This document shows positions 4,166 through 63,887 of a stretch of DNA of 64,000 nt, piece after piece. The stretch is from Candidatus Aenigmatarchaeota archaeon (GTDB lineage Archaea > Aenigmatarchaeota > Aenigmatarchaeia > CG10238-14). The stretch spans positions 199,628 through 263,627 of the forward strand of contig JAHLMM010000001.1 of the NCBI GenBank assembly GCA_018920365.1, in the 5' to 3' direction. The position numbers and the translations under genes are program-made. How positions within the stretch are numbered: the stretch's first letter is position 1; every line of letters begins with the position of its first letter. The notes under the pieces are model-generated. The model was not told where the DNA came from. It saw only the letters and a program-made list of their open reading frames with translations, and made no database searches.

Positions 4166-5428
4166 ATGCAAATAAAAGCAGATCTTCACCTTCATAGCAA
4201 ATATGCTAGAGCTACCAGTAAGGATATGGATATTCACAGCCTTTCTGATTATGCTAAAATTAAAGGATTGAATTTGCTCGGAACAGGTGATTTTACACAT
4301 CCTAAGCAATTAAATGATTTAAAGAAAAAACTTGAACCAATAGAAGACAAAGGATTGTACAGATATAATGATGTTTTTTTCATGTTAACAACAGAAATGG
4401 CCACTTTTTATTTTCAGGACAAAAAATCAAGAAGAGTTCATCATTTAGTTCATTCACCTAGTTTTGAAATAGTGGATCAGATAATAGATGTTTTATCAAA
4501 AAAAGGTGCAAACACAGGTATAGATGGAAGAATGATGATGAAAATATCATCTCCAGAGCTTGTAGAAATACTTCATCAAATAAGCAAGGATATACATATT
4601 ATTCCTGCACATATATGGACACCTTATTTTGGTTGTTTAGGAAGCGTGACAGGTTTTGATTCAATTAAGGATTGCTATTTAGATCAGACAAAAAATATTT
4701 TTGCTATTGAAACAGGGTTAAGCAGCGATCCTTTAATGAATTGGAGAGTTTCAGAATTGGATAATTTTGTTTTAATGTCAAACTCAGATTCACATTCACC
4801 TTGGCCTTGGAGATTGGGTAGAGAGGCAAATGTTTTTGAATTAGATGAAATGAATTATTTTGAATTATGGGATGCTATTAAAAATAAAGATAGAAGCAAG
4901 TTGCTATATACTATTGAAGTTGATCCTAATTACGGCAAGTATCACTATACAGGACATAGAAATTGCAATGTTGTAATGCATCCGAAAGAAGCGAGGAAAC
5001 AGAACAATATATGCCCTGTATGCAAAAAGCAAATGACAATAGGCGTATTGCAGAGAGTTGAAGAATTGGCTGACAGAGAAGAAGGTTTTATTCCGAAAAA
5101 TGCTGTGCCATTCAAATCTCTTCTACCTTTATATGAAATAATATCTTTTGTTAAGGGGAGCAAGCAACTTTATTCAAAAAAAATAGTTGAAGAACAGAAT
5201 AAAATAATAAATAATTTTGGCAGCGAGCTCGAAGTTTTGATTAATGCAAGTTTTGACGATTTGATCAAAGTTACTGATGAGAAAATTACCAAAGCCATAA
5301 TTGATATAAGAGAGCAAAGAATATTGTTCAAACCAGGATATGATGGCACTTATGGAGAACCAATATTTAATGGAGAAAGAAAATTAAATTTTAATAAATC
5401 ACCACAAAAAAGCTTATCAGATTTTTAG
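4166..5428 (+). CDS. PHP-family phosphoesterase with a C-terminal zinc ribbon (COG1379-like).
   Basis: N-terminal PHP motif KADLHLHSKYARATS…GLNLLGTGDFTHP. A downstream HxH/Asp-rich region follows. C-terminal CNVVMHPKE…CPVCKK is a zinc ribbon. Confidence 0.7.
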   Translation: MQIKADLHLHSKYARATSKDMDIHSLSDYAKIKGLNLLGTGDFTHPKQLNDLKKKLEPIEDKGLYRYNDVFFMLTTEMATFYFQDKKSRRVHHLVHSPSFEIVDQIIDVLSKKGANTGIDGRMMMKISSPELVEILHQISKDIHIIPAHIWTPYFGCLGSVTGFDSIKDCYLDQTKNIFAIETGLSSDPLMNWRVSELDNFVLMSNSDSHSPWPWRLGREANVFELDEMNYFELWDAIKNKDRSKLLYTIEVDPNYGKYHYTGHRNCNVVMHPKEARKQNNICPVCKKQMTIGVLQRVEELADREEGFIPKNAVPFKSLLPLYEIISFVKGSKQLYSKKIVEEQNKIINNFGSELEVLINASFDDLIKVTDEKITKAIIDIREQRILFKPGYDGTYGEPIFNGERKLNFNKSPQKSLSDF

Positions 5429-5501
5429 GGTTCGTGGTCCAGCTGGTTAAGACGCTGCCCTCACATGGCAGAAATCGCCGGTTCGAATCCGGCCGAACCC
5501 A
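5428..5501 (+). tRNA. tRNA-Val (anticodon CAC), no intron.
   Basis: Cloverleaf folded by hand. Acceptor GGGTTCG/CGAACCC. T-arm GCCGG-TTCGAAT-CCGGC. Anticodon stem CTGCC/GGCAG with loop CTCACAT. Discriminator A. It sits in a GC-rich island within an AT-rich context. Confidence 0.85.
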
Positions 5502-42333: not shown

Positions 42334-43086
42334 ATGAGATTTTTGCTTTTAATACTGCTTTTTATTCCGCTGGTTTATTCTTGGGGTTTTGAAACTCATG
42401 AATGGATTTGCAAACAATTGCTTATTGGGAATCAAGATTTGAGAAAAATTGTTAATGAAAATGATTTTATCAGAGGTTGCAATGCACCTGACACAGAAAT
42501 AAAAGACCAACTTTATCATAACTGCTATTTTGCAAGAGAATGCAAACATATTAACACAGAAATAAAAGACCCTGTTAGCTTGGCATACTTTGCTGATATA
42601 AAAAGTTGCTTTGAAAAAGACTTATATAGCTGTCCTGCATTATTGAAATTTAACGCATCGATCGCTAAAAATGATTCTTATTGGATAGGAGCAAGCGTAC
42701 ATTATTTGTCCGATGCATTTGCACCTGTTCATCAGATAACAGGTGAAGATTATTATAAATGTCACAAACCGTTTGAAGATAAGATTGATAAAAAGCTGAA
42801 AGAAAAAAATTGGATCGTTCGTCAGAATTGTGAGTTTAGCTTTCCATGCTCTAAAGCAGGAAGTATGATAAGAAAGTGTCAAACAAAATATAACTCAACA
42901 ATAGAATTTTCTTATGATAATTTGGTTGAACTAGTCGTTGTTATAGATAAAGAAGTTTCACATAAACTTAAAATTAATGAAGGTAGGTATGAAAGCTTGA
43001 AACAAACAGGAATGATAGCTTTGATTAAAAATAAAATAATAGAAATTTTTAATCATTTTGTAAACAAGTTGCCTTTTTCAAAATAA
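42334..43086 (+). CDS. Secreted zinc-dependent phospholipase C / S1-P1 nuclease superfamily protein.
   Basis: The signal peptide precedes a mature N-terminus WGFETHEW. The N-terminal Trp is a Zn ligand in this superfamily. His/Asp-rich motifs follow (HYLSDAFAPVH). Confidence 0.45.
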   Translation: MRFLLLILLFIPLVYSWGFETHEWICKQLLIGNQDLRKIVNENDFIRGCNAPDTEIKDQLYHNCYFARECKHINTEIKDPVSLAYFADIKSCFEKDLYSCPALLKFNASIAKNDSYWIGASVHYLSDAFAPVHQITGEDYYKCHKPFEDKIDKKLKEKNWIVRQNCEFSFPCSKAGSMIRKCQTKYNSTIEFSYDNLVELVVVIDKEVSHKLKINEGRYESLKQTGMIALIKNKIIEIFNHFVNKLPFSK

Positions 43087-44471
43087 CTTTTCATAAATTC
43101 GGCAAACTCTTTGTTTTTCAAAAACTTTTTCAATTCATTTTGGTCAATTATCTTGAAGCTTTTTGAAAGTTGAGTTGCTATGAAGTTTGGTATTCCCTTT
43201 GCTTTTAAAATTTTTTCATCATCACTCAAAGTGTCAACAAGCTTAACTTTTGCTGATGTCCAACTTCTATTGACTTCAACAACCCAATAATCATCCTCTA
43301 TAAAAGGCCCATTTACTGCATCATTTTTATGTTTTTCAGCAAATCTTTCAGCATTTCTCTCATCAAAAACCCACGGCCCTACTATTTTGTCAATTGTAGG
43401 CAATCTGCTTACTTGCATTTCTAAAATAATTATCGCAGTTTTCTTTTCATCTGTCCAGCAATCGCTTCTTAATACTGCAAACTCATATTCTTTCATTATA
43501 CTTTCTAGTCTTTTTGTCGCTTTCCTTAACTGAGGCCACAATATGTCAGGAACAGTTTTTGGTGGTTCAAACACAACTGCTATGAATTCAGTGCCCCTGG
43601 ATTTAACAAAATTTTCAAATTCATTTGATTTTATGGTTTTAGTTTTTTTGAAAAAGAAATCTTCGTTTGGCTTTAGCAGAAACTCTTGTGATATTTTTTT
43701 GAATTTGTAGAAATTTTCAGGACTTATAGCAGATGCAACGTTTCTATGTTTATCAACAGGATCTATTACTATTAAAATTTCATTTTTGAATTTATTTTTT
43801 AACTGATTGTATTCGCTTTTTTTCCATTGATTTTCTATATCAATTATCTCCTTAACCTTCCAGTCTTTTGTAGCTTTTAACAGATTTAAGAAGCTGCCGT
43901 ATTTTATTATAAGCAGTTCGCATAAATAACCAGAAAAACCATTTGTCTTTGCATCAGCACCATACAAACCATTAGCTTTCAAAAACTGTTTCAATAACCT
44001 GACTTCATTGCTTAGCTGTTTTGGCAGTTTCTCTTCTAGATATTTGACATGAAATTGTGTTCTGTCAACAGCAGAAATTATCTTTTCTCCTTTTTCAATT
44101 TTGTAGCAAGGAACAAGATCAATACTTATTCCGTCTATTTTTCCTCTTATATAAGGGTGCTGGGCATATTCTATTGTCCATTTTCCTTTAAGAGTTTCAA
44201 TCACTTTCTTACCAACAGATAATCCAGTTTCCTCAAGCTGTTTGTTTGATAGTGTTTTAGGGAAAAGGATGAACACATCTATTTCGTTTTTGTTAGGAAG
44301 CCATGTGTCTCTTGTCAACGAGCCAGCAAGTATAACTTCTGCGTTGTACGAAGATGATACAGATTTTGATACTTCTAGCACACGGCTAGATATTAATTTA
44401 ATTTTCCTTTCTTCTTTGTTCGTAGGTGTAATTTTTTTAAGTACATTTTTTAAAAGTTGACTGTTTGTCAT
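43053..44471 (-). CDS. cca: Archaeal class I CCA-adding tRNA nucleotidyltransferase.
   Basis: The text ILAGSLTRDTWLPNKNEIDVFILF contains the Pol-beta NTase GS…D.D motif. The protein is 472 aa, archaeal-type. Confidence 0.85.
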   Translation of the reverse strand: MTNSQLLKNVLKKITPTNKEERKIKLISSRVLEVSKSVSSSYNAEVILAGSLTRDTWLPNKNEIDVFILFPKTLSNKQLEETGLSVGKKVIETLKGKWTIEYAQHPYIRGKIDGISIDLVPCYKIEKGEKIISAVDRTQFHVKYLEEKLPKQLSNEVRLLKQFLKANGLYGADAKTNGFSGYLCELLIIKYGSFLNLLKATKDWKVKEIIDIENQWKKSEYNQLKNKFKNEILIVIDPVDKHRNVASAISPENFYKFKKISQEFLLKPNEDFFFKKTKTIKSNEFENFVKSRGTEFIAVVFEPPKTVPDILWPQLRKATKRLESIMKEYEFAVLRSDCWTDEKKTAIIILEMQVSRLPTIDKIVGPWVFDERNAERFAEKHKNDAVNGPFIEDDYWVVEVNRSWTSAKVKLVDTLSDDEKILKAKGIPNFIATQLSKSFKIIDQNELKKFLKNKEFAEFMKSYFEKGNLFTK

Positions 44472-47585: not shown

Positions 47586-48563
47586 TCAAGATTTATCACG
47601 ACTTTTGAAAGATTTGTATGATGAGTTGTAGACATATTTTTCTATTGTCTTGCACGTCCTACATATTTTTTCAGAGCTAGGCTCTTCACATCTCTCGCAA
47701 ACATTTATTTCTTTGCCAGCAAAATCGTGTTTTATTGAAGAAGCTATTTTCTCGCCACTTTTTACTATAGAATATTTTATGCCAGGAGATCTATCTTCAA
47801 GTTTGTTGAGAAAATCTCTTGTCTCCATCCGTAGTGCATTAAAATTTGCATAAGGACATTCATCAAAATAAGCAGGTATACCATTGATCATTGCATAGAG
47901 AGCAGATTCTTTCTCAGGTATCATAAGCAATGGTTTTATCCTTGGTATGAATTTTTTGTGATCAACAACTTTCGGAACACCGCCAAACCTTGCAAGCCTT
48001 AGCAGATCACCTTTCATAACATTCATCAATATGCTTTGGGCTTCGTCATCTAGATTATGTCCAACAGCTATTTTGTTTGCATTCAATTCTCTTGCTTTTT
48101 GATTTAACAAATATCTTCTGAATATACCGCATGGTCCGCACATGCTACCTTCTTTTAGCTCTTTAGCTATTTTATCAATAGTTGTGTGCAAACTTTGCTG
48201 GAAAGAAACTATATGATGCTCGACACCTAAATGCTTGCAAAAATCTATGCACCCTTTCAAAGTTTTATCTCTATATCCTTTAATCCCTTCATCTATTGTT
48301 ATGGCCACTATTTCTATTTTAGGATTTTTTTCGAATATTTTCTTCAAAATGTAAAGAGTGTTTGATGAATCTTTACCGCCTGACAACCCAACAGCGATTT
48401 TATCACCATCTTCAATCATTTTAAATCTTCTTATAGTCGTTTTTACCCTGTTTTCAATATTTTTGCTAAAACATCTTTTGCAATAATACCGACCTTCGTT
48501 TATTCTAAAATAAATTGCTTGATTGCTACAAGAAGAGCATTTCTTCATTTCTTCACCTTGCAT
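47586..48563 (-). CDS. ncsA: tRNA thiolation protein (TtcA/NcsA PP-loop ATPase family with Zn fingers).
   Basis: N-terminal CxxC…CxxC. PP-loop SGGKDS. A central Cys cluster (GPCGIFRR). C-terminal CxxC pairs. Confidence 0.8.
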   Translation of the reverse strand: MQGEEMKKCSSCSNQAIYFRINEGRYYCKRCFSKNIENRVKTTIRRFKMIEDGDKIAVGLSGGKDSSNTLYILKKIFEKNPKIEIVAITIDEGIKGYRDKTLKGCIDFCKHLGVEHHIVSFQQSLHTTIDKIAKELKEGSMCGPCGIFRRYLLNQKARELNANKIAVGHNLDDEAQSILMNVMKGDLLRLARFGGVPKVVDHKKFIPRIKPLLMIPEKESALYAMINGIPAYFDECPYANFNALRMETRDFLNKLEDRSPGIKYSIVKSGEKIASSIKHDFAGKEINVCERCEEPSSEKICRTCKTIEKYVYNSSYKSFKSRDKS

Positions 48564-49180
48564 ATAGCAATAATATTTTTCTTTGGTTCCTTTGTGATTT
48601 TAATGCTTTCAATTTCAAGATCAGCAGCTTGAATATCTTTTTCCAGCTCGCGTTTTGTATACAAGTGATAATATCTTTTCAACCTATTCCCTCCTTTTCT
48701 CCATTCAACATAAACATCGCCAAAGCTAAAAATGTTTTTTAATAAATTTTTTACATGAATTAGCTGCCATCTATACCAAACAGACAAAAATATTTTTTTT
48801 CTAGCTATTCTTTTCATCTCTTTCAACGCTTTTATTCTGTCATCATTAACCAAATGATGAAGTGTAGCAGCACAAAATATAAAATCAAATGTTTTATCTT
48901 TTAAAGGAAGTGCTTTTGCATCTGCTATTATTAGATCAATGTCAACATTATTTTTTCCTATCATTTTCCTTGCTTGTTTTATCATATTTTTAGAAAAATC
49001 CACGCCAACACATCTATAACCTTTTTTTGCTATCGGTATTAAATTTCTACAATTACCACAGCCAATATCGATAGTGCTACCTTTGAAAATTCCAAAAGGT
49101 ATATATAAAGCTGGTTTTGCTCTAAAATTTGACCATGATTCTGCAATTTCATCATATGTTTGCCTTAAGCTTTTCATCAT
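48545..49180 (-). CDS. Class I SAM-dependent methyltransferase.
   Basis: Motif I is IDIGCGNCRN. Post-I is VGVDFS. Motif II is FIFCAATLHH. Confidence 0.75.
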   Translation of the reverse strand: MMKSLRQTYDEIAESWSNFRAKPALYIPFGIFKGSTIDIGCGNCRNLIPIAKKGYRCVGVDFSKNMIKQARKMIGKNNVDIDLIIADAKALPLKDKTFDFIFCAATLHHLVNDDRIKALKEMKRIARKKIFLSVWYRWQLIHVKNLLKNIFSFGDVYVEWRKGGNRLKRYYHLYTKRELEKDIQAADLEIESIKITKEPKKNIIAICKVKK

Positions 49181-49205
49181 TAGAAATATAGTATAAATGC
49201 TTAAA

Positions 49206-49296
49206 TAGCCCCGAGCGGATTCGAACCGCTGTCAACGGGTCCAAAGCCCGCTATCCTTGGCCATTGTCCTGGTTAAACCATCTAGACGACGGGGCT
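49206..49296 (-). tRNA. tRNA-Gln (anticodon TTG) with a ~17-nt insertion in the D-loop, a putative non-canonical intron.
   Basis: Minus-strand sequence AGCCCCG-TC-GTCT-[AGATGG TTTAACCAGGACAATGG CCAA]-GGAT-A-GCGGG-CTTTGGA-CCCGT-TGAC-AGCGG-TTCGAAT-CCGCT-CGGGGCT-A. It has the A1-U72 pair and discriminator A typical of archaeal tRNA-Gln. The total is 91 nt. Confidence 0.7.
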
Positions 49297-49340
49297 ATAA
49301 AATGGCTAATAATATAGAAATCATAAGAATATTAAATATT

Positions 49341-49658
49341 TTAAGTTCTCTTTACCGTATCCTTTTTCTTTACAATCTGCTTTTCAATTTCATTAAGAAC
49401 TTTTTCAACAGCATCGAGCACCTTCCAGTCGCTGTGATCAGCATAAAATAATCCATGAGTCGTTTCAAGATAGCATTTTATTTGATAATATTTATGATCG
49501 CCTCTTTCTCTGATTTTATCTGCACTTAACTTGAATATTTTGACTGATTTTTCTCCAAACATTTTCTTATATTTTTCAAGTAATTTTTCAGACTTTTCTC
49601 TTATCATATCTTTTATCTCCAAAGTAAGATTGTCAAATCCGGATAATTGCACGTTCAT
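49341..49658 (-). CDS. hpf: Ribosome hibernation-promoting factor / RaiA (YfiA) family protein.
   Basis: The text MNVQLSGFDNLTLEIKDMIREKSEKLLEKYKKMF…IKCYLETTHGLFYADHSDWKVLDAVEKVLNEIEKQIVKKKD aligns in length (~100 aa) and pattern with bacterial HPF. The shared features are NxxITG, a lysine-rich helix 1, and the conserved AID…L…Q..K.K helix. Confidence 0.7.
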   Translation of the reverse strand: MNVQLSGFDNLTLEIKDMIREKSEKLLEKYKKMFGEKSVKIFKLSADKIRERGDHKYYQIKCYLETTHGLFYADHSDWKVLDAVEKVLNEIEKQIVKKKDTVKRT

Positions 49659-50265: not shown

Positions 50266-50595
50266 GTGAATGTAAAACAGTTAACTATTTCTAGCTTTAA
50301 TGATCTTGAAAAAATAAAAGGAAATGAAAGGGTAATACACTTGAGAAAATTTGTAAGTAAAAATATTCTAAAAATTATATGTTCAAAATGCAAGTATTTG
50401 GATTATGTTTCTATACCTGAAAAAATTTATTTTAAGAGTATAAACTCTGTGAAAAATTCTGATGTAAAAATAGTTGTTGTTAAAAGAAATTCAGGCCGCC
50501 CAAATTTAGTAGAAAAATTAATCCAAGAAAAGAATATGGCTTTTAGTATGAAATTTAAATCTATTGATATAAAAAATAAAGAGGTGTTTGTGTGA
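50266..50595 (+). CDS. Hypothetical protein (109 aa) immediately upstream of thrS.
   Basis: The ORF ends 4 nt into thrS. There is one CxxC pair (CSKCKY). No family was recognised. Confidence 0.3.
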   Translation: MNVKQLTISSFNDLEKIKGNERVIHLRKFVSKNILKIICSKCKYLDYVSIPEKIYFKSINSVKNSDVKIVVVKRNSGRPNLVEKLIQEKNMAFSMKFKSIDIKNKEVFV

Positions 50596-52454
50596 GAATA
50601 ATACAACATCATGTTGATTTTATAGAATATAGACCTATTGAGAAAGAGATTGATTTTGCCGAGGAAATAGAAAAGAAAAGCGTAAGACTTGAAGATATTG
50701 TCGTCCTATTTACAAGTGTTGAAGAAGGAGATAATGAATCTGTCGCAAAACATGCTATTTCTCAGATAAAACAATCCATTTCAAACCTAAAAGCAAACAA
50801 GATATTAATATATCCATATGCCCATCTAAGTTCAAACTTGGCAAAACCATCAGAAGCTTTACAATTGCTTAAAAAAATGGAAGAATTTGCAAAAGAGCAA
50901 GGCATTCAAGTTTATAGAGCACCATTTGGATGGAACAAACAGTTTGAGTTGAAGACAAAAGCTCATCCAATGGCTGAGCAATTTAAAGTTTTCACACCAG
51001 AGCAAGCAAAAGAAGAAGATGTTTCTCAATCTTTAAAGCAAGAAGAAAAGGTAAAGTCAGAATGGTTTATATTAACACCAGACGGAAAGCTAACAGACGC
51101 TTTAAAGTTTGATTTTAAAGGCCATGAAAATTTGAAAAAATTCTTTAATTATGAGTACGCGAAGGTCAGAGCCGTATCTGAAATTCCGCCACATGTAAAA
51201 TTAATGAAAGCTTTAGAATTGGTTGACTATGAGCCAGGATCAGATCCCGGAAATTTTAGGTTTTTACCTAAAGGCCGTCTAGTAAAATCATTAATGGAGC
51301 AATGGATAACTCAAAAAGTTATAAAATATGGAGCAATGGAAGTTGAAACACCTATAATGTATGATTATGATCATCCGGCTTTGAAAGAATATTTAAACAG
51401 ATTTCCAGCAAGGCAATATACATTAGAATCAGCAAAGAAAAAATTCTTTTTAAGATTTGCCGCATGCTTTGGTCAGTTTTTGACTATGTCAGCTTCAAAC
51501 ATATCATACAAAGATTTGCCTATGAAAGTGTTTGAGCTTACGAGATATTCTTTCAGGCTAGAAAAAGCAGGTGAATTGGTCGGATTAAGAAGATTAAGAG
51601 CGTTCACAATGCCTGATATGCATACTTTATGCAGAGATTTAAAGACAGCAAGAGAAGAATTTTATAATCAATTCAAGTTAGGTGTTGAAACATTAAAGGA
51701 TTTAGACATAAGTAGTGAAGATTTTGAAGTTGCAATTAGATTTACAAAAGACTTTTGGAATGAAAACAAAGATTTTGTTTTGTCATTAGTAAAAATAGTT
51801 AACAAACCAGTGCTAATAGAGATGTGGAATTTTAGATATGCATATTTTGATCCTAAATTCGAGTTTAATTTTGTTGATTCAATGGATAAAGCATCTGCAT
51901 TAACAACAGTGCAAATAGATCATGAGAATGGAAAGAGATTCAACATAGAATATACAGATGAAGATGGAAAAAGGAAAAATCCTTATATTTTGCACTGCTC
52001 GCCATCAGGTAGCTTGGAAAGATGTTTTTATGCAATGTTAGAAAAGAATTATATGAAATCAAAGAAAGGTGAAAATCCAGTATTGCCTTTGTGGCTTTCA
52101 CCAACTCAAGTTAGACTTTGTCCGATAAACCAAGACTATATTGAATACAGCAAGGAAATAATGGTAGAACTGGAAAAGAATAATATAAGAGTTGATATAG
52201 ATGACAGAAGTGAAAGAATACAGAAAAAAGTGAGAGATGCAGAAATGGAATGGGTTCCATACATCCTTGTTATAGGTAGAAATGAAAAGGAGAGCAAGCA
52301 ATTTAATGTTAGAAAAAGAGAAGATAAAAGCGTTGAAGTAAAAATGACAATAGATCAATTAGTTAAAGAAATAAAAGAGAAGACAAAGGATAAACCATTC
52401 AAAGAGTTACCTTTGCCTAAACTGATATCAAAAAGACCTATTTTTATAGGTTAA
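50592..52454 (+). CDS. thrS: Archaeal-type threonine—tRNA ligase with the N-terminal D-aminoacyl-tRNA-deacylase-like editing domain.
   Basis: The N-terminus MRIIQHHVDFIEYRPIEKE…ILIYPYAHLSSNLAKPSEALQ…YRAPFGWNKQFELKTKAHP matches the archaeal ThrRS editing domain. Class II motifs are present (FRLEKAGELVGLRRLRAF). The C-terminal anticodon-binding domain is present. Confidence 0.9.
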   Translation: MRIIQHHVDFIEYRPIEKEIDFAEEIEKKSVRLEDIVVLFTSVEEGDNESVAKHAISQIKQSISNLKANKILIYPYAHLSSNLAKPSEALQLLKKMEEFAKEQGIQVYRAPFGWNKQFELKTKAHPMAEQFKVFTPEQAKEEDVSQSLKQEEKVKSEWFILTPDGKLTDALKFDFKGHENLKKFFNYEYAKVRAVSEIPPHVKLMKALELVDYEPGSDPGNFRFLPKGRLVKSLMEQWITQKVIKYGAMEVETPIMYDYDHPALKEYLNRFPARQYTLESAKKKFFLRFAACFGQFLTMSASNISYKDLPMKVFELTRYSFRLEKAGELVGLRRLRAFTMPDMHTLCRDLKTAREEFYNQFKLGVETLKDLDISSEDFEVAIRFTKDFWNENKDFVLSLVKIVNKPVLIEMWNFRYAYFDPKFEFNFVDSMDKASALTTVQIDHENGKRFNIEYTDEDGKRKNPYILHCSPSGSLERCFYAMLEKNYMKSKKGENPVLPLWLSPTQVRLCPINQDYIEYSKEIMVELEKNNIRVDIDDRSERIQKKVRDAEMEWVPYILVIGRNEKESKQFNVRKREDKSVEVKMTIDQLVKEIKEKTKDKPFKELPLPKLISKRPIFIG

Positions 52455-52456
52455 GT

Positions 52457-53275
52457 TTATTTTTTAGTTGGGTGTGAATTTTCCCAAATCAAATTAAATA
52501 CAGGATTTAGTATATCTCTTGAAGCATGCTCTGATTTTGTCCAAAACATCATATGTTGTGTATCACTTGTTTCAGGATGTGACAAGCTCATCATTGTTTG
52601 TTGATTGTCGACTATAAAGAATTTGCCGCCTATTGGTATTTTTTCATCAGCTATTTTTCTTATTTCTGCAACTTCTTGCAATGCCTTTACTGCATCACCA
52701 CATGAATTATCAATTTTTGATGCAATTTTTATTTCAATGCCTTTTTGCTTTAAATTTTTCAGCATATTGTAATGATTTTCATATAATTCATTCAATCCTG
52801 ATGGCGTTGTTACTATATTCACAGATGAAGTTGCTGATTTTAACATTGAGTCAAGCTGTTGCAACACTGAATATTTACCTTTCAAAGAACCGCTTATATC
52901 TTCAGGTGAAACTGTTGTCAACCCTTGTTTGTGTATAGCTTCTAATTCTTGCAAAAGACTAGAAGATTTTAACCTATCTATTCTATCTATTCTCAATTCA
53001 TAATCTTGCTTCATTTTTAGTTTAACTCTCTCTAAAGCTTCTGATGGTGGTACAGCAACATATTTCAATGGTTTTGAGCTTTGCAATATAACATATCCTT
53101 TTTCAGCCAGTGTCTGCAAAACATCGTATGTTCTTGATCTAGGCACATTTGTTATTGTTGATAGCTCACCTGCAGTTGCAACACCTTTTGCAAGAAGAGC
53201 AACCCAAAGTTTTCTTTCATATAAATTCAAACCAATTCCTTTTAATGTATCCATAAGTTGTGGCGATCCTAACAT
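52457..53275 (-). CDS. trmB: TrmB-family sugar-responsive transcriptional regulator.
   Basis: The N-terminal wHTH is GLNLYERKLWVALLAKGVATAGELSTITNVPRSRTYDVLQTLAEKGYV. A C-terminal effector domain follows. Confidence 0.7.
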   Translation of the reverse strand: MLGSPQLMDTLKGIGLNLYERKLWVALLAKGVATAGELSTITNVPRSRTYDVLQTLAEKGYVILQSSKPLKYVAVPPSEALERVKLKMKQDYELRIDRIDRLKSSSLLQELEAIHKQGLTTVSPEDISGSLKGKYSVLQQLDSMLKSATSSVNIVTTPSGLNELYENHYNMLKNLKQKGIEIKIASKIDNSCGDAVKALQEVAEIRKIADEKIPIGGKFFIVDNQQTMMSLSHPETSDTQHMMFWTKSEHASRDILNPVFNLIWENSHPTKK

Positions 53276-57274: not shown

Positions 57275-57304
57275 ATAAATGCTTAAATTAATTTTATCCT
57301 TAAA

Positions 57305-57427
57305 ATATTATTGACCCCCTGTAGCTCAACGGTAGAGCATTCGGCTGTAGGCATTTGCATATGCATTTGCCACCGGCATTTGCTCGCAGAAACCGAAGGG
57401 TTGCTGGTTCAAATCCGGCCGGGGGGA
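57305..57427 (+). tRNA. tRNA-Tyr (anticodon GTA) with a 51-nt intron at the canonical 37/38 position.
   Basis: The C1–G72 pair is the archaeal/eukaryal Tyr identity element. D-arm GCTC-AACGGTA-GAGC. Anticodon stem TTCGG/CCGAA with loop CTGTAG-[intron 57341–57391]-A. T-arm GCTGG-TTCAAAT-CCGGC. Discriminator A. Confidence 0.8.
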
Positions 57428-57723: not shown

Positions 57724-57827
57724 GCTCTGGTGGTGTAGCTCGGCCTAATCATATAGAGACCAATCATACGGGACTGTCATCATATGGCAGAACTCCCGTG
57801 ACCCGGGTTCAAATCCCGGCCAGAGCG
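57724..57827 (+). tRNA. tRNA-Asp (anticodon GTC) with a 13-nt canonical-position intron and an additional ~16-nt insertion in the D-arm region.
   Basis: Acceptor GCTCTGG/CCAGAGC with discriminator G. T-arm CCGGG-TTCAAAT-CCCGG. Anticodon stem CGGGA/TCCCG with loop CTGTCA-[TCATATGGCAGAA]-C. The D region is ~19 nt too long. It contains a duplicated CC(T)AATCATA segment. The total is 104 nt. Confidence 0.7.
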
Positions 57828-58098: not shown

Positions 58099-59610
58099 AT
58101 GAATGAATATATGACTTTGTTAAAATCGTTTGCACGCGACGAAGGTCTGATTAGATTTCAGATAGAATCCTACAATGACTTTATAGAAAACAGAATACCA
58201 AACATCATAAAACAAATAAAAGAAATTAAACCAGAAGTTCCTGACTTGGGAGAGTTTAGAATTAAATTAGGTAAGTTCAAAGTGGGAAAACCATTAGGTA
58301 CAGATATATGGGGTCCTTGGACGAAAGAGGCAGACGGTTCAGAAAGACCAATATTGCCTCAAGAATCGAGAATAAGAAATCTAACATATTCTGCTCCAAT
58401 GTATCTTGAAATGACACCAAACTTGAATGGTATAGATAGCGAAACAATTACAGTTAATTTTGGTGATTTGCCTGTCATGCTCAAATCAAAAATATGTCCA
58501 TTGTCGAAAATGGATAGGCAAGAGTTAATCAGAGTTGGAGAAGATCCAGATGATCCAGGAGGTTATTTTATTGTAAATGGTACAGAAAGAGTACTAGTTT
58601 TGATTGAAGAAATATCACCAAATAAAATTCTAGTCGAGTCACCAAGCACACCAAATGTAACAAACATAGCTAGAATACATTCAGAAAGAGATGGTTATAT
58701 TCAAAGACATATAATTGAAAGGAGAAACGATGGCATTATTAGAATAAATTTTGCAAATGTCAACAAAATGCCTATAGTAATTTTACTAAGGGCACTCGGA
58801 TTAGAGACAGATAAAGATATAATAACATTTTTGTCAGATGATCCAGAAGTGCAACAAGAGTTTTATCCAAATTTATTCGAGACGCAATCAGCAACATCAA
58901 AAGAAGCAATAGAAGAAATAGCAGATTTTCTAAAAATAACACAAAAAGAATATAGACAAGACAAAGTCAACAAGTTATTGGATAAATATTTGCTTCCTCA
59001 TTTAGGTCAAGATAAAAAATATAGAATAAACAAAGCATTGTATTTGGCAAAGGCAACAGAAAAAATAATTAAAAATCATCTAAAGAAAGTACCAAAGGAT
59101 GACATTGACCATTATTCGAACAAAAGATTGAAATTGTCAGGAGATTTATTGGAAATATTATTTAGATCTGTGCTGCTTGGTAAATGGGGATTGATAACTA
59201 GAATAACTTACAATTATCAAAAATTAACAAAAAGAGGAAGATTTCCACCCCTGCAATCAATAGTTGAATCAAATGTCTTGACAAATCAAATAATTTCAGC
59301 CATAGCAATAGGCTCATGGGTTGGCGGAAGGACAGGCGTTTCTCAGAGACTTGAAAGAGGAAGCTTTGTTAAAACAGTTTCTCATACAAGAAATGTATTA
59401 TCGCCGTTAACATCAACTCAAGAACACTTTGAAGCAAGAGTTTTGCATCCAACTCAATGGGGAAAAATAGATCCATCACAAACACCAGAAGGTGCAACAA
59501 TTGGGTTAAGAAAATATCTAGCTATAATGGGTCAAATAACAAAGGGTGCAACTGAAAAAGAAGTGAAAATCTTGGAAGATATTTTGTTAAAAGAGGTTGA
59601 TAAAAAATGA
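58099..59610 (+). CDS. rpoB2: DNA-directed RNA polymerase subunit B'' (N-terminal half of split subunit B).
   Basis: Begins MNEYMTLLKSFARDEGLIRFQIESYNDFIE…. It contains protrusion/lobe domain sequences. The stop overlaps the next start (ATGA). The ORF-track start at 58066 overlaps the rpoH stop. The ATG at 58099 is the more likely start. Confidence 0.85.
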   Translation: MNEYMTLLKSFARDEGLIRFQIESYNDFIENRIPNIIKQIKEIKPEVPDLGEFRIKLGKFKVGKPLGTDIWGPWTKEADGSERPILPQESRIRNLTYSAPMYLEMTPNLNGIDSETITVNFGDLPVMLKSKICPLSKMDRQELIRVGEDPDDPGGYFIVNGTERVLVLIEEISPNKILVESPSTPNVTNIARIHSERDGYIQRHIIERRNDGIIRINFANVNKMPIVILLRALGLETDKDIITFLSDDPEVQQEFYPNLFETQSATSKEAIEEIADFLKITQKEYRQDKVNKLLDKYLLPHLGQDKKYRINKALYLAKATEKIIKNHLKKVPKDDIDHYSNKRLKLSGDLLEILFRSVLLGKWGLITRITYNYQKLTKRGRFPPLQSIVESNVLTNQIISAIAIGSWVGGRTGVSQRLERGSFVKTVSHTRNVLSPLTSTQEHFEARVLHPTQWGKIDPSQTPEGATIGLRKYLAIMGQITKGATEKEVKILEDILLKEVDKK

Positions 59611-62600
59611 CTGATGTGTTTTTTGATGGAAAATATTTTGGAAGTGTTAAGGACCCGGTAAAATTAGTTAATTCAATAAGGGAAAAGAGAAGAAAAGGTC
59701 AATTGTCAGATCAGATTAATGCATCATATCTTGAACACTTTGATATAGTAATGATATCTACAGATTCTGGTAGAGCAAGAAGACCATTAATAGTAGTCGA
59801 AAACGGAAAACCAAAATTGACAAAAGAACATTTAAACATGCTTGAGAGTGGAAAGATAAAATGGAGTGATTTGATTTCTCAAGGTATAATAGAATATTTG
59901 GATGCAACTGAAGAAGAAAATGCATTGATTGCTTTAAAACCAGAAGATTTAACACAAAAACACACACATTTGGAATTAGATCCCACAATAATAATGGGTG
60001 TTGCTACATCTCTTGTTCCATTTGCAGAATTTAACAGAGGAGACAGAGTAAATTTTGGCGCAAAAATGATAGGCCAAGCGATAGGTATGTATTCAATAAA
60101 CTTTCCTGTTAGAGTTGACACAAAATCAAATATAATGATATATCCTCAAGTGCCTATTGTAAAGACACACATGAATGATATAATAAATGATCAAGATCAT
60201 CCTGGCGGTCACAATGTAGTTATTGCAATGATGCCGTTTTTGGGTTATAACATGGAGGATGCTGTTGTCATAAACAAATCATCCATTGAAAGAGGGTTGT
60301 TTTGGTCATACATGTTCAGATCATATGAAGCCGAGGAAAAAAGATATTTGGGTGGTCAAGAGGATATAATAGGAATACCTGAACCTGGAATAAGAGGTTA
60401 TGCTGGTGAAGATGCGTATAAACATTTACCAGAAGATGGTATAGTAAATCCTGAAACAAAACTCAAAAAAGAGGATGTTATAATAGGCAAATCATCACCG
60501 CTGAGATTCTTGGGTAGTTTAGATCAATTCACAACAGGCTTGGAAAATATAAGAGAAACTTCTGTTAGACTAAAACATGGAACAGAAGGTATAGTTGATA
60601 GAGTTTTTATTACAGAAAGTTTTGAAGGAAATAAACTTGTAAAAGTTGTTGTGAGAGATTTGAAAATACCTGAATTAGGAGATAAATTTGCCAGCAGACA
60701 TGGACAAAAAGGCGTTTTAGGTTTAATAATAAATCAGGAAGAATTACCATTCACAGAAGATGGTATTACACCTGACATAATTTTTAATCCTCATGGCATA
60801 CCATCTAGAATGACAATAGGGCAGATTTTAGAAATATTATCAAGCAAGGTAGGTGCTTTGACTGGTAAAAGGATAACAAGTTCTGCATTCCATCCTTTTG
60901 ATGAAAAGACAATAAGAGAAACTTTGAAAAAATATGGGTTTGATGATGATGGAAAAGAGTTTATGTATGACAGCAGAAATGGCCAAAAATTGATAAATAA
61001 AATCCTAATAGGAGAGATATATTATCAGAAACTAGATCATCTTGTTTCAAACAAAATGTATTCAAGATCAAAAGGTCCTGTGACACTTTTGACAAAACAA
61101 CCAACAGAAGGAAAATCAAAAATGGGTGGTTTGAGACTAGGTGAAATGGAAAAAGACTGTTTAATTGCACACGGTGCTTCGTTGCTTTTGAAGGAAAGAT
61201 TTGATTCAGATAAGATAATGATATCAATATGCAAAGATTGTGGTATAGAAGCTATAAATGATAGGGTTAAAAATAAAAAATTCTGCCCAATGTGTGGTGG
61301 TTCAAAGACTGTTGATATTGACATGTCATATGCTTTCAAACTTTTACTAGACGAGCTAAAAAGCATGGCAATATATCCAAAAATAATTGTTGATGAGGAT
61401 TTGGGAATTATTGATAAAATGGTGTTTGGTATATTAACACCTGAAATGATAAAGAAAATATCAGCATCAAAAATAAGTAAAACAGAATTGTATGATCAAG
61501 AAGGCTATCCTGTTGAAGGAGGCTTGATGGATCCAAGACTTGGCGTTATAGATCCTGGATTGAGATGCAGAACATGCGGTGGAACAGTTGGTGATTGCAA
61601 AGGTCATTTCGGATACCTTGAATTGACAAAACCAGTGATACATGTAAATTACGCAAAGCTAATTTACAATATTTTAAGGTTCACATGCAGAAAATGCAAC
61701 AAGGTTTTGATAAGTCCTGATGATGTTGCAAAGTTCAAAGAAGGCAAAAAGTCAATGAAGAGACTAAAGACATTCATAAAATCAACATGCCCATATTGCA
61801 AAGAAAAACAGGGTAAGATAAAATACATCAAACCTACTACATATCAGGAAGATTCTGAAATATTGACAGCAGTGCAAGTAAGAGAAAGATTGGAAAAAAT
61901 ACCTGATAGCGAGCTAGAATATTTTGGTCTTAGAAAAATGAGGCCTGAAAATTTGGTTTTAACACTACTTCCAGTTCCACCAGTAACTGTGAGACCTTCT
62001 ATAACTTTGGAAACAGGTGAAAGATCAGAAGATGATTTGACACACAAGCTTGTAGATATTGTTAGAATAAACAAAAGATTGAGGGAAAATATAGAGTTGG
62101 GTGCACCTGATTTTATAATACAAGATTTATGGGAGCTTTTACAATATCACGTTGCAACTTATATGAATAATGAAATAACGGGCGTACCACCAGCTAGACA
62201 TAGATCAGGAAGAGTTTTGAAGACATTGGCACAAAGATTAAAGACAAAAGAAGGAAGATTTAGAAGCAATTTGATTGGTAAGAGAGTTAACTTTTCTGCA
62301 AGAACAGTTGTTAGCCCAGATCCATTTTTAGATATAAATGAGGTAGGCGTACCATTATCAGTTGCAACAGAATTGACCTTACCAGTTGTTGTAAATGAAA
62401 AGAATATTGAAAAGATAAGGCAGATGATAGAGAGATATCCAGAATGGCCAACAATAAATTATGTAAATAGACCAGATGGAAGAAGAAAGAAAGTCACAGA
62501 ATTGAACAAAGCTGATATAGCAAAAGAAATAGAACCTGGTTATATTGTTGAAAAACAGATAGAGAATGGCGATTGGGCAGTTTTCAATAGACAGCCATCA

Positions 62601-63887
62601 TTACACAGGATGAGCATGATGGGCCATAAGGTAAGAGTAATGCCTTATAATACATTTAGACTGAATTTATCGGTTGCACCGCCTTATAATGCAGATTTTG
62701 ATGGAGATGAGATGAACCTTCACATACCTCAAACAAAAGAGGCTCAAGTTGAAACAAAAATGCTTACAGAAGTTTCGACACAATTTAGAAGCCCAAGATT
62801 TAGTAGTGTTATAATAGGTGCAATAAATGATCATATAACAGGCTTGTACATACTGACAACAAAAATGAAGTTTTCAAGAAAAGATACAGTCTCTATTGTA
62901 AAGGCATGTGATCCAGAAATTCAAGTTCCTGACAAAAAAGAATTTACAGGAAAGGAAATATTCAGCTTATTCTTGCCAAAAGATTTTGATTTTGAATATT
63001 CAAAAGGAGATTTGAAAGTTGTGATAGAAAACGGTCAACTAGTAGAAGGAATAATCGATGAAAACGGTTTGGGTGCATTTAAAGGAAAACTGCTTGATGA
63101 AATTGAGAGAAGATATGGTGGTGAATTTACAAGGAAGTTGCTCTTTAACATGACAAAACTTTCTCTTGAAGTGTTGATGAGATATGGCTTTACTACTTCA
63201 ATATCTGATTATGACATTGATGAGAAGATAGTAAAACAAATAAATGATTTGCTTGAAAATGCAAAGAAAGAGATAAATGACATGATAAAAGATTTCAAAA
63301 AAGGCAAGATAAAAGAAATAGTAGGAAGAACAAAGAGAGAGACATTTGAAACATTGGTTAAAATAAAATTGGCTGATTTGCTAAATCAGATAACAACACT
63401 TGTCGCAAAGAACATAAAAGAGAATTCAATTTACATAATGGCTAAAAGTGGTGCTAGAGGCAGTCTAGTTAACATGGTTCAGTGCATTGCATGCCTTGGT
63501 CAAGAAACAATTAGAGGTGAAAGAATAAGGATAGGTTATTATAAAAGAACTTTGCCTCATTTTGAAAAAGGTGATATGAGTTTAGAATCAAGAGGTTTTG
63601 TTAGACACGGCTATAAAAATGGTTTGACACCGTTTGAATTTTTCTTTGATGCAATGAACAGTAGAGAAGGTCTTATGGATAAATCTTTAAAGACAAGACA
63701 TAGTGGTTATCTTGAAAGAAGATTGATAGGTGCATTAAAAGATTTGAAAGTAGAGTACGATGGTACTGTAAGAGATGCTTCAAAGAAAATTGTTCAGTTT
63801 ATTGCTGCTGAAGATGGTTTAGACCCATCGAGAATACAAAAAGGTGGTATAGATGTCGGAAAAATCGCTGAAAGATTATTTGGATGA
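59607..63887 (+). CDS. rpoB1-rpoA1: In-frame fusion of RNA polymerase subunit B' (residues 1–604) and subunit A' (from M605). It encodes a single 1426-aa polypeptide.
   Basis: The B' portion ends …MSYAFKLLLDELKSMAIYPKIIVDEDLGIIDK. The frame runs directly into MVFGILTPEMIKK…GGLMDPRLGVIDPGLRCRTCGG…GHFGYLELTKPVIHV, the canonical A' N-terminus with its Zn-binding motif. No stop codon lies between them. The A' catalytic NADFDGDEM motif is present. The ORF ends …AERLFG-TGA. Confidence 0.85.
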   Translation: MTDVFFDGKYFGSVKDPVKLVNSIREKRRKGQLSDQINASYLEHFDIVMISTDSGRARRPLIVVENGKPKLTKEHLNMLESGKIKWSDLISQGIIEYLDATEEENALIALKPEDLTQKHTHLELDPTIIMGVATSLVPFAEFNRGDRVNFGAKMIGQAIGMYSINFPVRVDTKSNIMIYPQVPIVKTHMNDIINDQDHPGGHNVVIAMMPFLGYNMEDAVVINKSSIERGLFWSYMFRSYEAEEKRYLGGQEDIIGIPEPGIRGYAGEDAYKHLPEDGIVNPETKLKKEDVIIGKSSPLRFLGSLDQFTTGLENIRETSVRLKHGTEGIVDRVFITESFEGNKLVKVVVRDLKIPELGDKFASRHGQKGVLGLIINQEELPFTEDGITPDIIFNPHGIPSRMTIGQILEILSSKVGALTGKRITSSAFHPFDEKTIRETLKKYGFDDDGKEFMYDSRNGQKLINKILIGEIYYQKLDHLVSNKMYSRSKGPVTLLTKQPTEGKSKMGGLRLGEMEKDCLIAHGASLLLKERFDSDKIMISICKDCGIEAINDRVKNKKFCPMCGGSKTVDIDMSYAFKLLLDELKSMAIYPKIIVDEDLGIIDKMVFGILTPEMIKKISASKISKTELYDQEGYPVEGGLMDPRLGVIDPGLRCRTCGGTVGDCKGHFGYLELTKPVIHVNYAKLIYNILRFTCRKCNKVLISPDDVAKFKEGKKSMKRLKTFIKSTCPYCKEKQGKIKYIKPTTYQEDSEILTAVQVRERLEKIPDSELEYFGLRKMRPENLVLTLLPVPPVTVRPSITLETGERSEDDLTHKLVDIVRINKRLRENIELGAPDFIIQDLWELLQYHVATYMNNEITGVPPARHRSGRVLKTLAQRLKTKEGRFRSNLIGKRVNFSARTVVSPDPFLDINEVGVPLSVATELTLPVVVNEKNIEKIRQMIERYPEWPTINYVNRPDGRRKKVTELNKADIAKEIEPGYIVEKQIENGDWAVFNRQPSLHRMSMMGHKVRVMPYNTFRLNLSVAPPYNADFDGDEMNLHIPQTKEAQVETKMLTEVSTQFRSPRFSSVIIGAINDHITGLYILTTKMKFSRKDTVSIVKACDPEIQVPDKKEFTGKEIFSLFLPKDFDFEYSKGDLKVVIENGQLVEGIIDENGLGAFKGKLLDEIERRYGGEFTRKLLFNMTKLSLEVLMRYGFTTSISDYDIDEKIVKQINDLLENAKKEINDMIKDFKKGKIKEIVGRTKRETFETLVKIKLADLLNQITTLVAKNIKENSIYIMAKSGARGSLVNMVQCIACLGQETIRGERIRIGYYKRTLPHFEKGDMSLESRGFVRHGYKNGLTPFEFFFDAMNSREGLMDKSLKTRHSGYLERRLIGALKDLKVEYDGTVRDASKKIVQFIAAEDGLDPSRIQKGGIDVGKIAERLFG

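Follow-up and report, generated by a model that had tools for sequence, protein, structure and literature searches.

The window analysed here is a 64,000-nucleotide stretch from the genome of an uncultured Aenigmatarchaeota (DPANN) archaeon with a G+C content of ~31%. It holds four tRNA genes (Val, Gln, Tyr and Asp), three of which carry introns. The RpoB'' encoded in the window matches, with 100% identity, an NCBI protein from a 'Candidatus Aenigmatarchaeota archaeon' MAG. The gene for tRNA-Gln(UUG) occupies 49206..49296 on the minus strand, a strand that the first-pass annotation had not given, as a precursor body of 91 nt. It is flanked by a class I methyltransferase-like ORF (48545-49180) and by the genes for ThrRS (50592-52454) and TrmB (52457-53275). 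The order of methyltransferase, a 105-aa ORF, ThrRS and TrmB around tRNA-Gln is conserved at six other loci (L005, L043, L073, L079, L121 and L122), and for L005 most of the flanking proteins tested show 87-94% amino-acid identity to those of the window, with 66% for one small ORF. Two more distant loci, L114 (Aenigmatarchaeota) and L041, are also syntenic and carry tRNA-Gln without an intron. The window further encodes an archaeal class I CCA-adding enzyme (43053-44471, minus strand), which fits its tRNA genes because none of them encodes CCA. Neither EndA nor RtcB was found among the 30 window ORFs tested, and a tblastn search of 1 Mb of comparison loci with an approximate M. jannaschii EndA sequence returned no match.

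Several other elements of the locus deserve mention. An AT-rich, TATA-like stretch, CTTAAAATATTTAATATT (49327..49345, minus strand), lies 31-49 nt upstream of the mature 5' end of tRNA-Gln, and orthologues have TTTAA-type stretches at about the same distance. It is possibly the promoter of the gene, a candidate to be held lightly, since in a genome of only 31% G+C such a stretch could occur by chance. A 12-mer, AAATGCTTAAAT, is present twice on the plus strand of the window. The copy at 57277-57288 sits 27 nt upstream of tRNA-Tyr, and in L041 the 12-mer precedes the intron-less tRNA-Gln by a similar distance. The copy at 49195-49206 adjoins the 3' end of tRNA-Gln on the opposite strand, where its reverse complement lies 15-26 nt upstream of the methyltransferase ATG (49180). 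In this AT-rich genome the 12-mer is a candidate BRE/TATA promoter element. Weak C/D-box snoRNA-like Rfam matches at 49139-49187 on the minus strand (sR5, E = 0.12; SNORD27 and Z199; E range 0.12-2.6) lie across the point where the methyltransferase ORF begins with ATGATGA and were rejected as probably due to chance.

Elsewhere in the window, a single 1426-aa ORF (59607-63887, plus strand) joins RNA polymerase B' (Rpb2 domains 4-7) and A' (Rpb1 domains 1-5) in frame, with the junction reading ...YPKIIVDEDLGIIDKMVFGIL... Gene calls show the same fusion in L125-L130, L124 has an open frame through the junction, and in L131 B' and A' are separate genes 1 nt apart. The predicted fusion is conserved in the subclade of the window. 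It recalls the rpoB-rpoC fusion of Helicobacter, and a limited literature search found no description of it.

Read from 49296 to 49206, the tRNA-Gln precursor consists of AGCCCCG UC GUCU, a 27-nt D-loop AGAUGGUUUAACCAGGACAAUGGCCAA, and GGAU A GCGGG CUUUGGA CCCGU UGAC AGCGG UUCGAAU CCGCU CGGGGCU A, with TTTAAG, and not CCA, directly 3' of A73. The acceptor, anticodon and T arms show no defect, the A1-U72 pair and A73 are in place, and the D-loop alone is abnormal. This bears out the first-pass annotation, which had recognised a tRNA-Gln(UUG) gene, its three intact arms and a D-loop of 27 nt. The anticodon UUG lies at 49242..49244 (minus strand) and is recognised by ARAGORN once the insertion has been taken out. 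A finder that folded the full 91 nt as a mature tRNA had been named beforehand as evidence against an intron, and neither ARAGORN nor the Rfam tRNA model did so. ARAGORN reported no tRNA in the intact 91 nt, and its run on the whole window gave one tRNA only, Val (5428-5501). With the Rfam tRNA model, whose threshold is 29 bits, the match was confined to the 3' 57 nt and scored 29.5. Interrupted genes score 29.5-29.6 bits with this model, whereas intron-less homologues reach 61.8-64.4 (64.4 for L114; 61.8 for L120 and L030). Following excision in silico, ARAGORN calls a tRNA-Gln(ttg) of 73 nt, and the excised gene has the cloverleaf, UUG anticodon, A1-U72 pair and A73 expected of an archaeal tRNA-Gln.

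The extent of the insertion was defined by comparison with at least 120 tRNA-Gln loci retrieved from genomes by sequence pattern. Among the matches listed, 108 of 120 share the ends AGCCCCG...CGGGGCUA, and in the remaining 12 the 5' end either varies or is cut short. In 87 of the 120 (again among the matches listed), the part 5' of the anticodon-stem GGG measures 29 nt and reads AGCCCCGU..U.UAG-Y-GGYCAAG.A..., which includes a 9-nt D-loop, AG-Y-GGYCAA. Because the window has 47 nt in this interval rather than 29, the excess is 18 nt, not the 17 nt of the first-pass annotation. In a MAFFT alignment the gap opens exactly between AG and YGG. This places the intron, AUGGUUUAACCAGGACAA (equivalent to ATGGTTTAACCAGGACAA), at 49264..49281 on the minus strand, between tRNA positions 15 and 16 (precursor nt 16-33, nt 1 being window position 49296), and its excision yields a 73-nt tRNA with the 9-nt D-loop AGUGGCCAA. 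The 5' exon, AGCCCCGUCGUCUAG (49282..49296; tRNA positions 1-15), is the same as the first 15 nt of many intron-less homologues, others of which vary at positions 9-13. The 3' exon, UGGCCAAGGAUAGCGGG...CGGGGCUA (49206..49263; tRNA positions 16-73), was delimited by the same comparison and by ARAGORN after excision.

The first-pass annotation had instead proposed a 17-nt intron, TTTAACCAGGACAATGG, whose removal would restore a 10-nt D-loop, AGAUGGCCAA, and had pointed to a duplicated ATGG at its borders; this repeat permits five registers, perhaps with splicing through a relaxed hBH or HBh' motif. ARAGORN does accept the corresponding 74-nt product as tRNA-Gln, and a 10-nt D-loop occurs in 2 of the 120 homologues among the matches listed (L059 and L066), compared with the 87 that have 9 nt. 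Inspection by hand showed that none of the five registers forms a 4-bp central helix with 3-nt bulges, and the motif search gives the 18-nt solution only. Moreover, although both ATGG copies are present in the window, the repeat is missing from the orthologues L073 and L079, which read ATGG...ACGG, still fit an 18-nt bulge-helix-bulge (BHB) intron and, on excision of 18 nt, restore exactly AGCGGUCAA, the commonest intron-less loop. The duplication is therefore best regarded as coincidental and not as a meaningful flank, and we consider a 17-nt intron very improbable.

The 18-nt intron is embedded in a strict hBHBh' motif of the 3-4-3 type, the sole such motif in the 5' half of the gene (all coordinates on the minus strand). 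Its central helix (H) pairs the 5' strand of the D-stem, GUCU (tRNA positions 10-13; 49284..49287), with the intronic GGAC (precursor nt 28-31; 49266..49269). On either side lie two 3-nt bulges: AG|A (precursor A14 G15 A16; 49281..49283), with the predicted 5' cut after G15, between 49282 and 49281, and AA|U (precursor A32 A33 U34; 49263..49265), with the predicted 3' cut between 49264 and 49263. The 4-bp inner helix h' closes the hairpin UGGU-UUA-ACCA (precursor U17-U20 with A24-A27, loop UUA; 49270..49280), in which the GGU-UUA-ACC hairpin of the first-pass annotation can be recognised. The 3-bp outer helix h is formed by G7 U8 C9 (49288..49290) and G18 G19 C20 of the 3' exon (precursor G35 G36 C37; 49260..49262). 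G7 doubles as the last acceptor-stem pair and as part of h, and h spans only 2-3 bp. The cleavage positions follow from the published layout of the archaeal BHB, in which the first two anticodon bases belong to the central helix and the splice sites lie in the bulges (PMC4090602), and which therefore places each cut after the second nucleotide of a bulge. Applied to the tRNA-Tyr of the window as an internal control, this rule gives the 37/38 junction and the intron length of 41 nt; it also accounts for the two introns of tRNA-Asp.

Three other intron types were considered for tRNA-Gln and ruled out. A self-splicing group I or group II intron requires a ribozyme core of hundreds of nucleotides and the insert has 18, a canonical 37/38 intron is incompatible with the intact anticodon loop CUUUGGA and an insertion at 15/16, and a relaxed BHB (hBH or HBh') does not describe a motif in which both bulges have 3 nt and both flanking helices are present. 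The search for a relaxed motif that had been recommended earlier was thus unneeded. Even with the cut-off relaxed to E <= 10, none of the intron families in Rfam matched the locus.

Folding calculations are compatible with the motif. The minimum free energy (MFE) structure of the 91 nt includes H and h', and when the anticodon and T arms are fixed as constraints, the energy is -31.2 kcal/mol for the BHB conformer against -28.2 kcal/mol for a cloverleaf with the real D-stem. The isolated 35-nt region gives a folding z of -1.5, which is not significant, and its MFE structure has a shifted outer helix. Folding energy alone is weak, and it is therefore the comparative data that carry the case. The strict hBHBh' motif is found 227 times in the window, counting both strands and 49 allowed lengths (~3.6e-5 per site-and-length combination). 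The copy in tRNA-Gln is more than a chance occurrence because it falls on the single site and length that restore the D-loop of the homologues, and does so in at least 10 other sequences too.

These further sequences carry introns of 18-54 nt at position 15/16 of tRNA-Gln, and every one fits the BHB geometry. Four are Aenigmatarchaeota MAGs (L005, L043, L073 and L079), in which the 3' half of tRNA-Gln is the same as that of the window and the insert measures 18-19 nt. A MAG labelled Woesearchaeota (L068) has an insert of 27 nt; L092 has an intron of 54 nt with an entirely different central helix, GUGU/ACAU; and L105, labelled Parvarchaeota, combines a 49-nt intron with a second one, of ~33 nt, further on in the D-arm. 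Scanning metagenomes for inserts of 10 nt or longer at this site brought in three contigs, L121 (18 nt), L122 (20 nt) and L123 (23 nt, 52% G+C). Across the 11 same-site introns, the first bulge always has 3 nt and reads AG|N, and the second reads AA|Y in 10 and AG|C in L092. The intronic strand of H always comprises 4 nt that end two nucleotides before the junction, and its pairing with the D-stem strand is complete in ten of the introns, with three of four positions paired in L105. This strand occurs as GGAC, GGAU, GGGC or ACAU, with pairing to GUCU or GUGU preserved. The inner helix, in contrast, ranges from 3 to 7 bp and has unrelated sequences, such as UGGC/GCCA, ACGCG/UGCGU, UGCAUC/GGUGCG and CUUCGG/CCGAAG.

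An alignment of nine sequences made it possible to quantify this pattern. All 90 of its 90 cells are paired (36/36 in H; 27/27 in h), compared with 20-52% when the partners are slid, and all three h' pairs counted have changed on both sides. None of 500 shuffles reached the observed value of any of the five measures. RNAalifold, run without hints on this alignment, predicts H, a 3-nt bulge and h'; the outer helix h was not among its predictions.

Insertions at other places were also seen in tRNA-Gln(UUG) genes. L010 and L088 (Micrarchaeota) have a 20-nt insert elsewhere in the D-arm, after ...CCAAG, and L028 (DPANN) has a 31-nt insert after the D-loop. In L035 and L062 no recognisable 5' acceptor strand lies next to the 3' half, and the gene could be split or have an intron close to its 5' end.

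The same comparisons bear on whether the insert is spliced at all. Standard finders reject the intact gene, and odd tRNAs are known in DPANN archaea, for example the one-pair D-arm of ARMAN-2 (PMC3239211), so that one might suppose either a mature tRNA that retains the insert as an enlarged D-loop with an extra hairpin, or a decaying pseudogene. Yet the remaining arms of the gene are perfect, and they are identical across species whose flanking proteins differ by 6-60%. The length variation from 18 to 54 nt is confined to h', while H, both bulges of 3 nt and the junctions are preserved, covarying with the D-stem, which argues for selection on an EndA substrate rather than on a mature structure or on nothing. 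In addition, an insert kept in the mature tRNA would leave G18 and G19 sequestered in h, so that the D-loop/T-loop interaction could not form. We therefore see little chance that the insert is retained or that the gene is decaying. The sequences themselves show the motif in its exact register, kept among relatives through compensatory changes, as well as orthologues that have no intron, and from these we infer excision: the locus is very probably a functional tRNA-Gln(UUG) gene with an 18-nt, protein-spliced BHB intron at position 15/16. The first-pass annotation, in reading a non-canonical BHB-type intron in the D-loop, had thus grasped the core of the matter.

Established archaeal tRNA splicing suggests how the precursor would be processed. 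The 5' strand of the D-stem (G10-U13) would pair with the intronic look-alike GGAC instead of its mature partner GGAU, so that GUCU/GGAC would form the 4-bp central helix, with the 3-nt bulges A14 G15|A and A A|U16 on opposite strands. The inner hairpin UGGU/ACCA and the outer helix G7 U8 C9 / G18 G19 C20 would complete the hBHBh'. With G18 and G19 engaged in helix h and the D-stem strand engaged in H, the tRNA core could not form before splicing. EndA is expected to cut after the second nucleotide of each bulge, the 5' exon would stay held through the 7-bp acceptor stem, and the 5' and 3' exons, of 15 nt and 58 nt, would be sealed by an RtcB-type ligase. The resulting 73-nt tRNA, with its 9-nt D-loop, would lastly receive CCA. 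There is a precedent in the D-loop of Aeropyrum pernix pre-tRNA-Thr, where a BHB intron is excised in vivo and EndA on its own suffices for its removal in vitro (PMC3241643). Counting against the proposal, an EndA of the alpha'2 type without the crenarchaeal loop hardly cut a strict D-loop BHB in vitro (PMC3241643). DPANN EndAs with an 'L3' insert have been reported alongside disrupted tRNA genes (PMC5829648).

The two other interrupted tRNA genes of the window lie on its plus strand. That for tRNA-Asp(GUC) (57724-57827) was missed by both ARAGORN and Rfam and was found through a T-loop match. It has two introns, one of 16 nt, ATCATATAGAGACCAA, at position 21/22 (57748-57763), placed by orthologue comparison, and one of 13 nt at the canonical position 37/38 (57780-57792); with both removed, ARAGORN recognises a 75-nt tRNA-Asp. 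In the window, the central helix of the 21/22 intron, G18G19C20C20a/GACC, has one C.A mismatch, and in L126, L127 and L129 all four pairs form, with compensatory changes. The family can be described as H = GGYC/GRYY with bulges UA|A and AA|U, and it becomes clear only from the orthologues, a relaxed BHB search on the tRNA-Asp of the window giving hundreds of meaningless matches. Its outer helix is the D-stem, separated by a 5-6-nt loop, which makes the motif slightly relaxed. In L130 and L131, inspected by hand, the tRNA-Asp genes (loci ~2100-2230) have a D-arm intron at 24/25 instead, with H = CUAU/GUAG and lengths of 17 and 29 nt, and no intron in the anticodon loop. The occurrence of a 24/25 intron in these distant relatives implies that the intron position of tRNA-Asp shifted or was replaced within the lineage. 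Taken together, the 15/16 intron of tRNA-Gln and the 21/22 and 24/25 introns of tRNA-Asp make D-arm introns a habit of this lineage, so that the earlier remark that D-loop introns are confined to few archaeal lineages does not convey how common they are here.

The gene for tRNA-Tyr(GUA) (57315-57427) contains a canonical intron of 41 nt (57351-57391), the excision of which leaves 72 nt with the anticodon loop CUGUAGA. Its central helix, C32U33G34U35/GCAG, and its 3' bulge, AA|A, are canonical. The 5' side is imperfect: the MFE structure has 1-nt bulges, and a 3-nt bulge AG|G requires an asymmetric loop opposite. This modelled irregularity hints that the EndA of the organism may tolerate relaxed motifs.

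How the tRNA-Gln intron arose is a separate matter. Gain of tRNA introns through mobile-element integration and recombination has been proposed (PMC3293823), and one could take the ATGG repeat for a target-site duplication, or suppose that the D-loop and the 3' strand of the D-stem were copied and the copy diverged into the intron, with the BHB incidental. Indeed, the intronic UGG..CCA-GGAC-A resembles the exonic UGGCCA-A-GGAU-A, and the tRNA-Asp intron of the window starts with a copy of the next exon (AUCAUA versus UCAUA; p ~0.025 by shuffling). Against this, the similarity between intron and exon in the tRNA-Gln of the window is not significant, with p = 0.44 by shuffling (marginal values of 0.08 for L043 and 0.03 for L123), GGAC must look like GGAU merely to pair with GUCU, and the ATGG repeat is not shared by the orthologues L073 and L079. 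A scar with an incidental BHB is hardly credible as an account of the locus, and, being a statement about origin, it is no rival to BHB splicing as the mechanism at work today. An origin by duplication or from a mobile element is possible, if statistically unsupported.

In summary, the comparative evidence favours an ordinary BHB intron, and the finding extends D-arm BHB introns to Aenigmatarchaeota, while leaving the understanding of how tRNA introns work unchanged. Could the 15/16 intron be old and selectively maintained in several DPANN lineages, rather than neutral clutter? Its site and its bulges (AG|N ... AA|Y) are kept, with the interior fully replaced, in Aenigmatarchaeota and in MAGs labelled Woesearchaeota and Parvarchaeota, and for this reason we entertain the idea, which on present comparisons we judge unlikely. 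GluRS and GatDE read the D-loop of tRNA-Gln. Maintenance would imply a function, such as blocking the D-loop-dependent folding of the core, modification or recognition by GluRS/GatDE until splicing has occurred, or else keeping integrating elements out of the gene; a further implication would be that a DPANN EndA can act inside the D-loop.

There are also practical consequences. The tRNA-Gln and tRNA-Asp genes, two of the four in the window, escape ARAGORN and fall below, or barely at, the Rfam tRNA threshold, so that genomes of this lineage will seem to be without essential tRNAs unless BHB-aware tools are used; the same concern has been raised for DPANN archaea (PMC5829648). Looking forward, the same-site family, with at least 11 sequences of 18-54 nt and clean covariation, could be used to train intron models and to test the specificity of DPANN endonucleases.

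Most of the non-canonical BHB introns described for archaeal tRNAs come from Thermoproteales, other Crenarchaeota, Thaumarchaeota, Nanoarchaeum and ARMAN-2, and the positions they occupy include 3/4, 20/21, 22/23, 25/26, 29/30, 45/46, 53/54, 56/57 and 59/60, among others (PMC4090602, PMC3239211, PMC8450103). They are known in D-arms and in some DPANN archaea, and the default mode of tRNAscan-SE 2.0 includes a search for such introns (PMC4090602, PMC3239211, PMC5829648, PMC8450103). Position 15/16 does not appear in the lists of the reviews that we compared, and our literature search found no description of tRNA introns in Aenigmatarchaeota.

The tRNA-Gln intron shares most features of this class. 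It is short (18 nt, within their range of 11-129 nt) and lies outside 37/38; it has a 4-bp helix and two 3-nt bulges with the splice sites two nucleotides into each; and its sequence is free save for pairing, with the result that ordinary tRNA finders miss it. It differs from the listed introns in its location at 15/16, in the 5' part of the D-loop, and in having a strict rather than a relaxed motif. With the 37/38 intron of the tRNA-Tyr of the window it shares the presumed enzymes and the bulge rule, whereas that intron lies in the anticodon loop and builds its central helix from positions 32-35 instead of the D-stem strand. The nearest counterparts are the D-loop BHB intron of A. pernix pre-tRNA-Thr2(UGU) and the 20b/21 HBh' intron of Methanopyrus kandleri pre-tRNA-Glu(UUC), which likewise lie inside the D-loop and block the tRNA core until they are removed (PMC3241643, PMC5829648). 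Those introns belong to other tRNAs, loop positions and phyla, and their hosts have an (alpha-beta)2 EndA. Placed beside them, the 15/16 intron of tRNA-Gln is of the ordinary archaeal protein-spliced kind, real but unsurprising.
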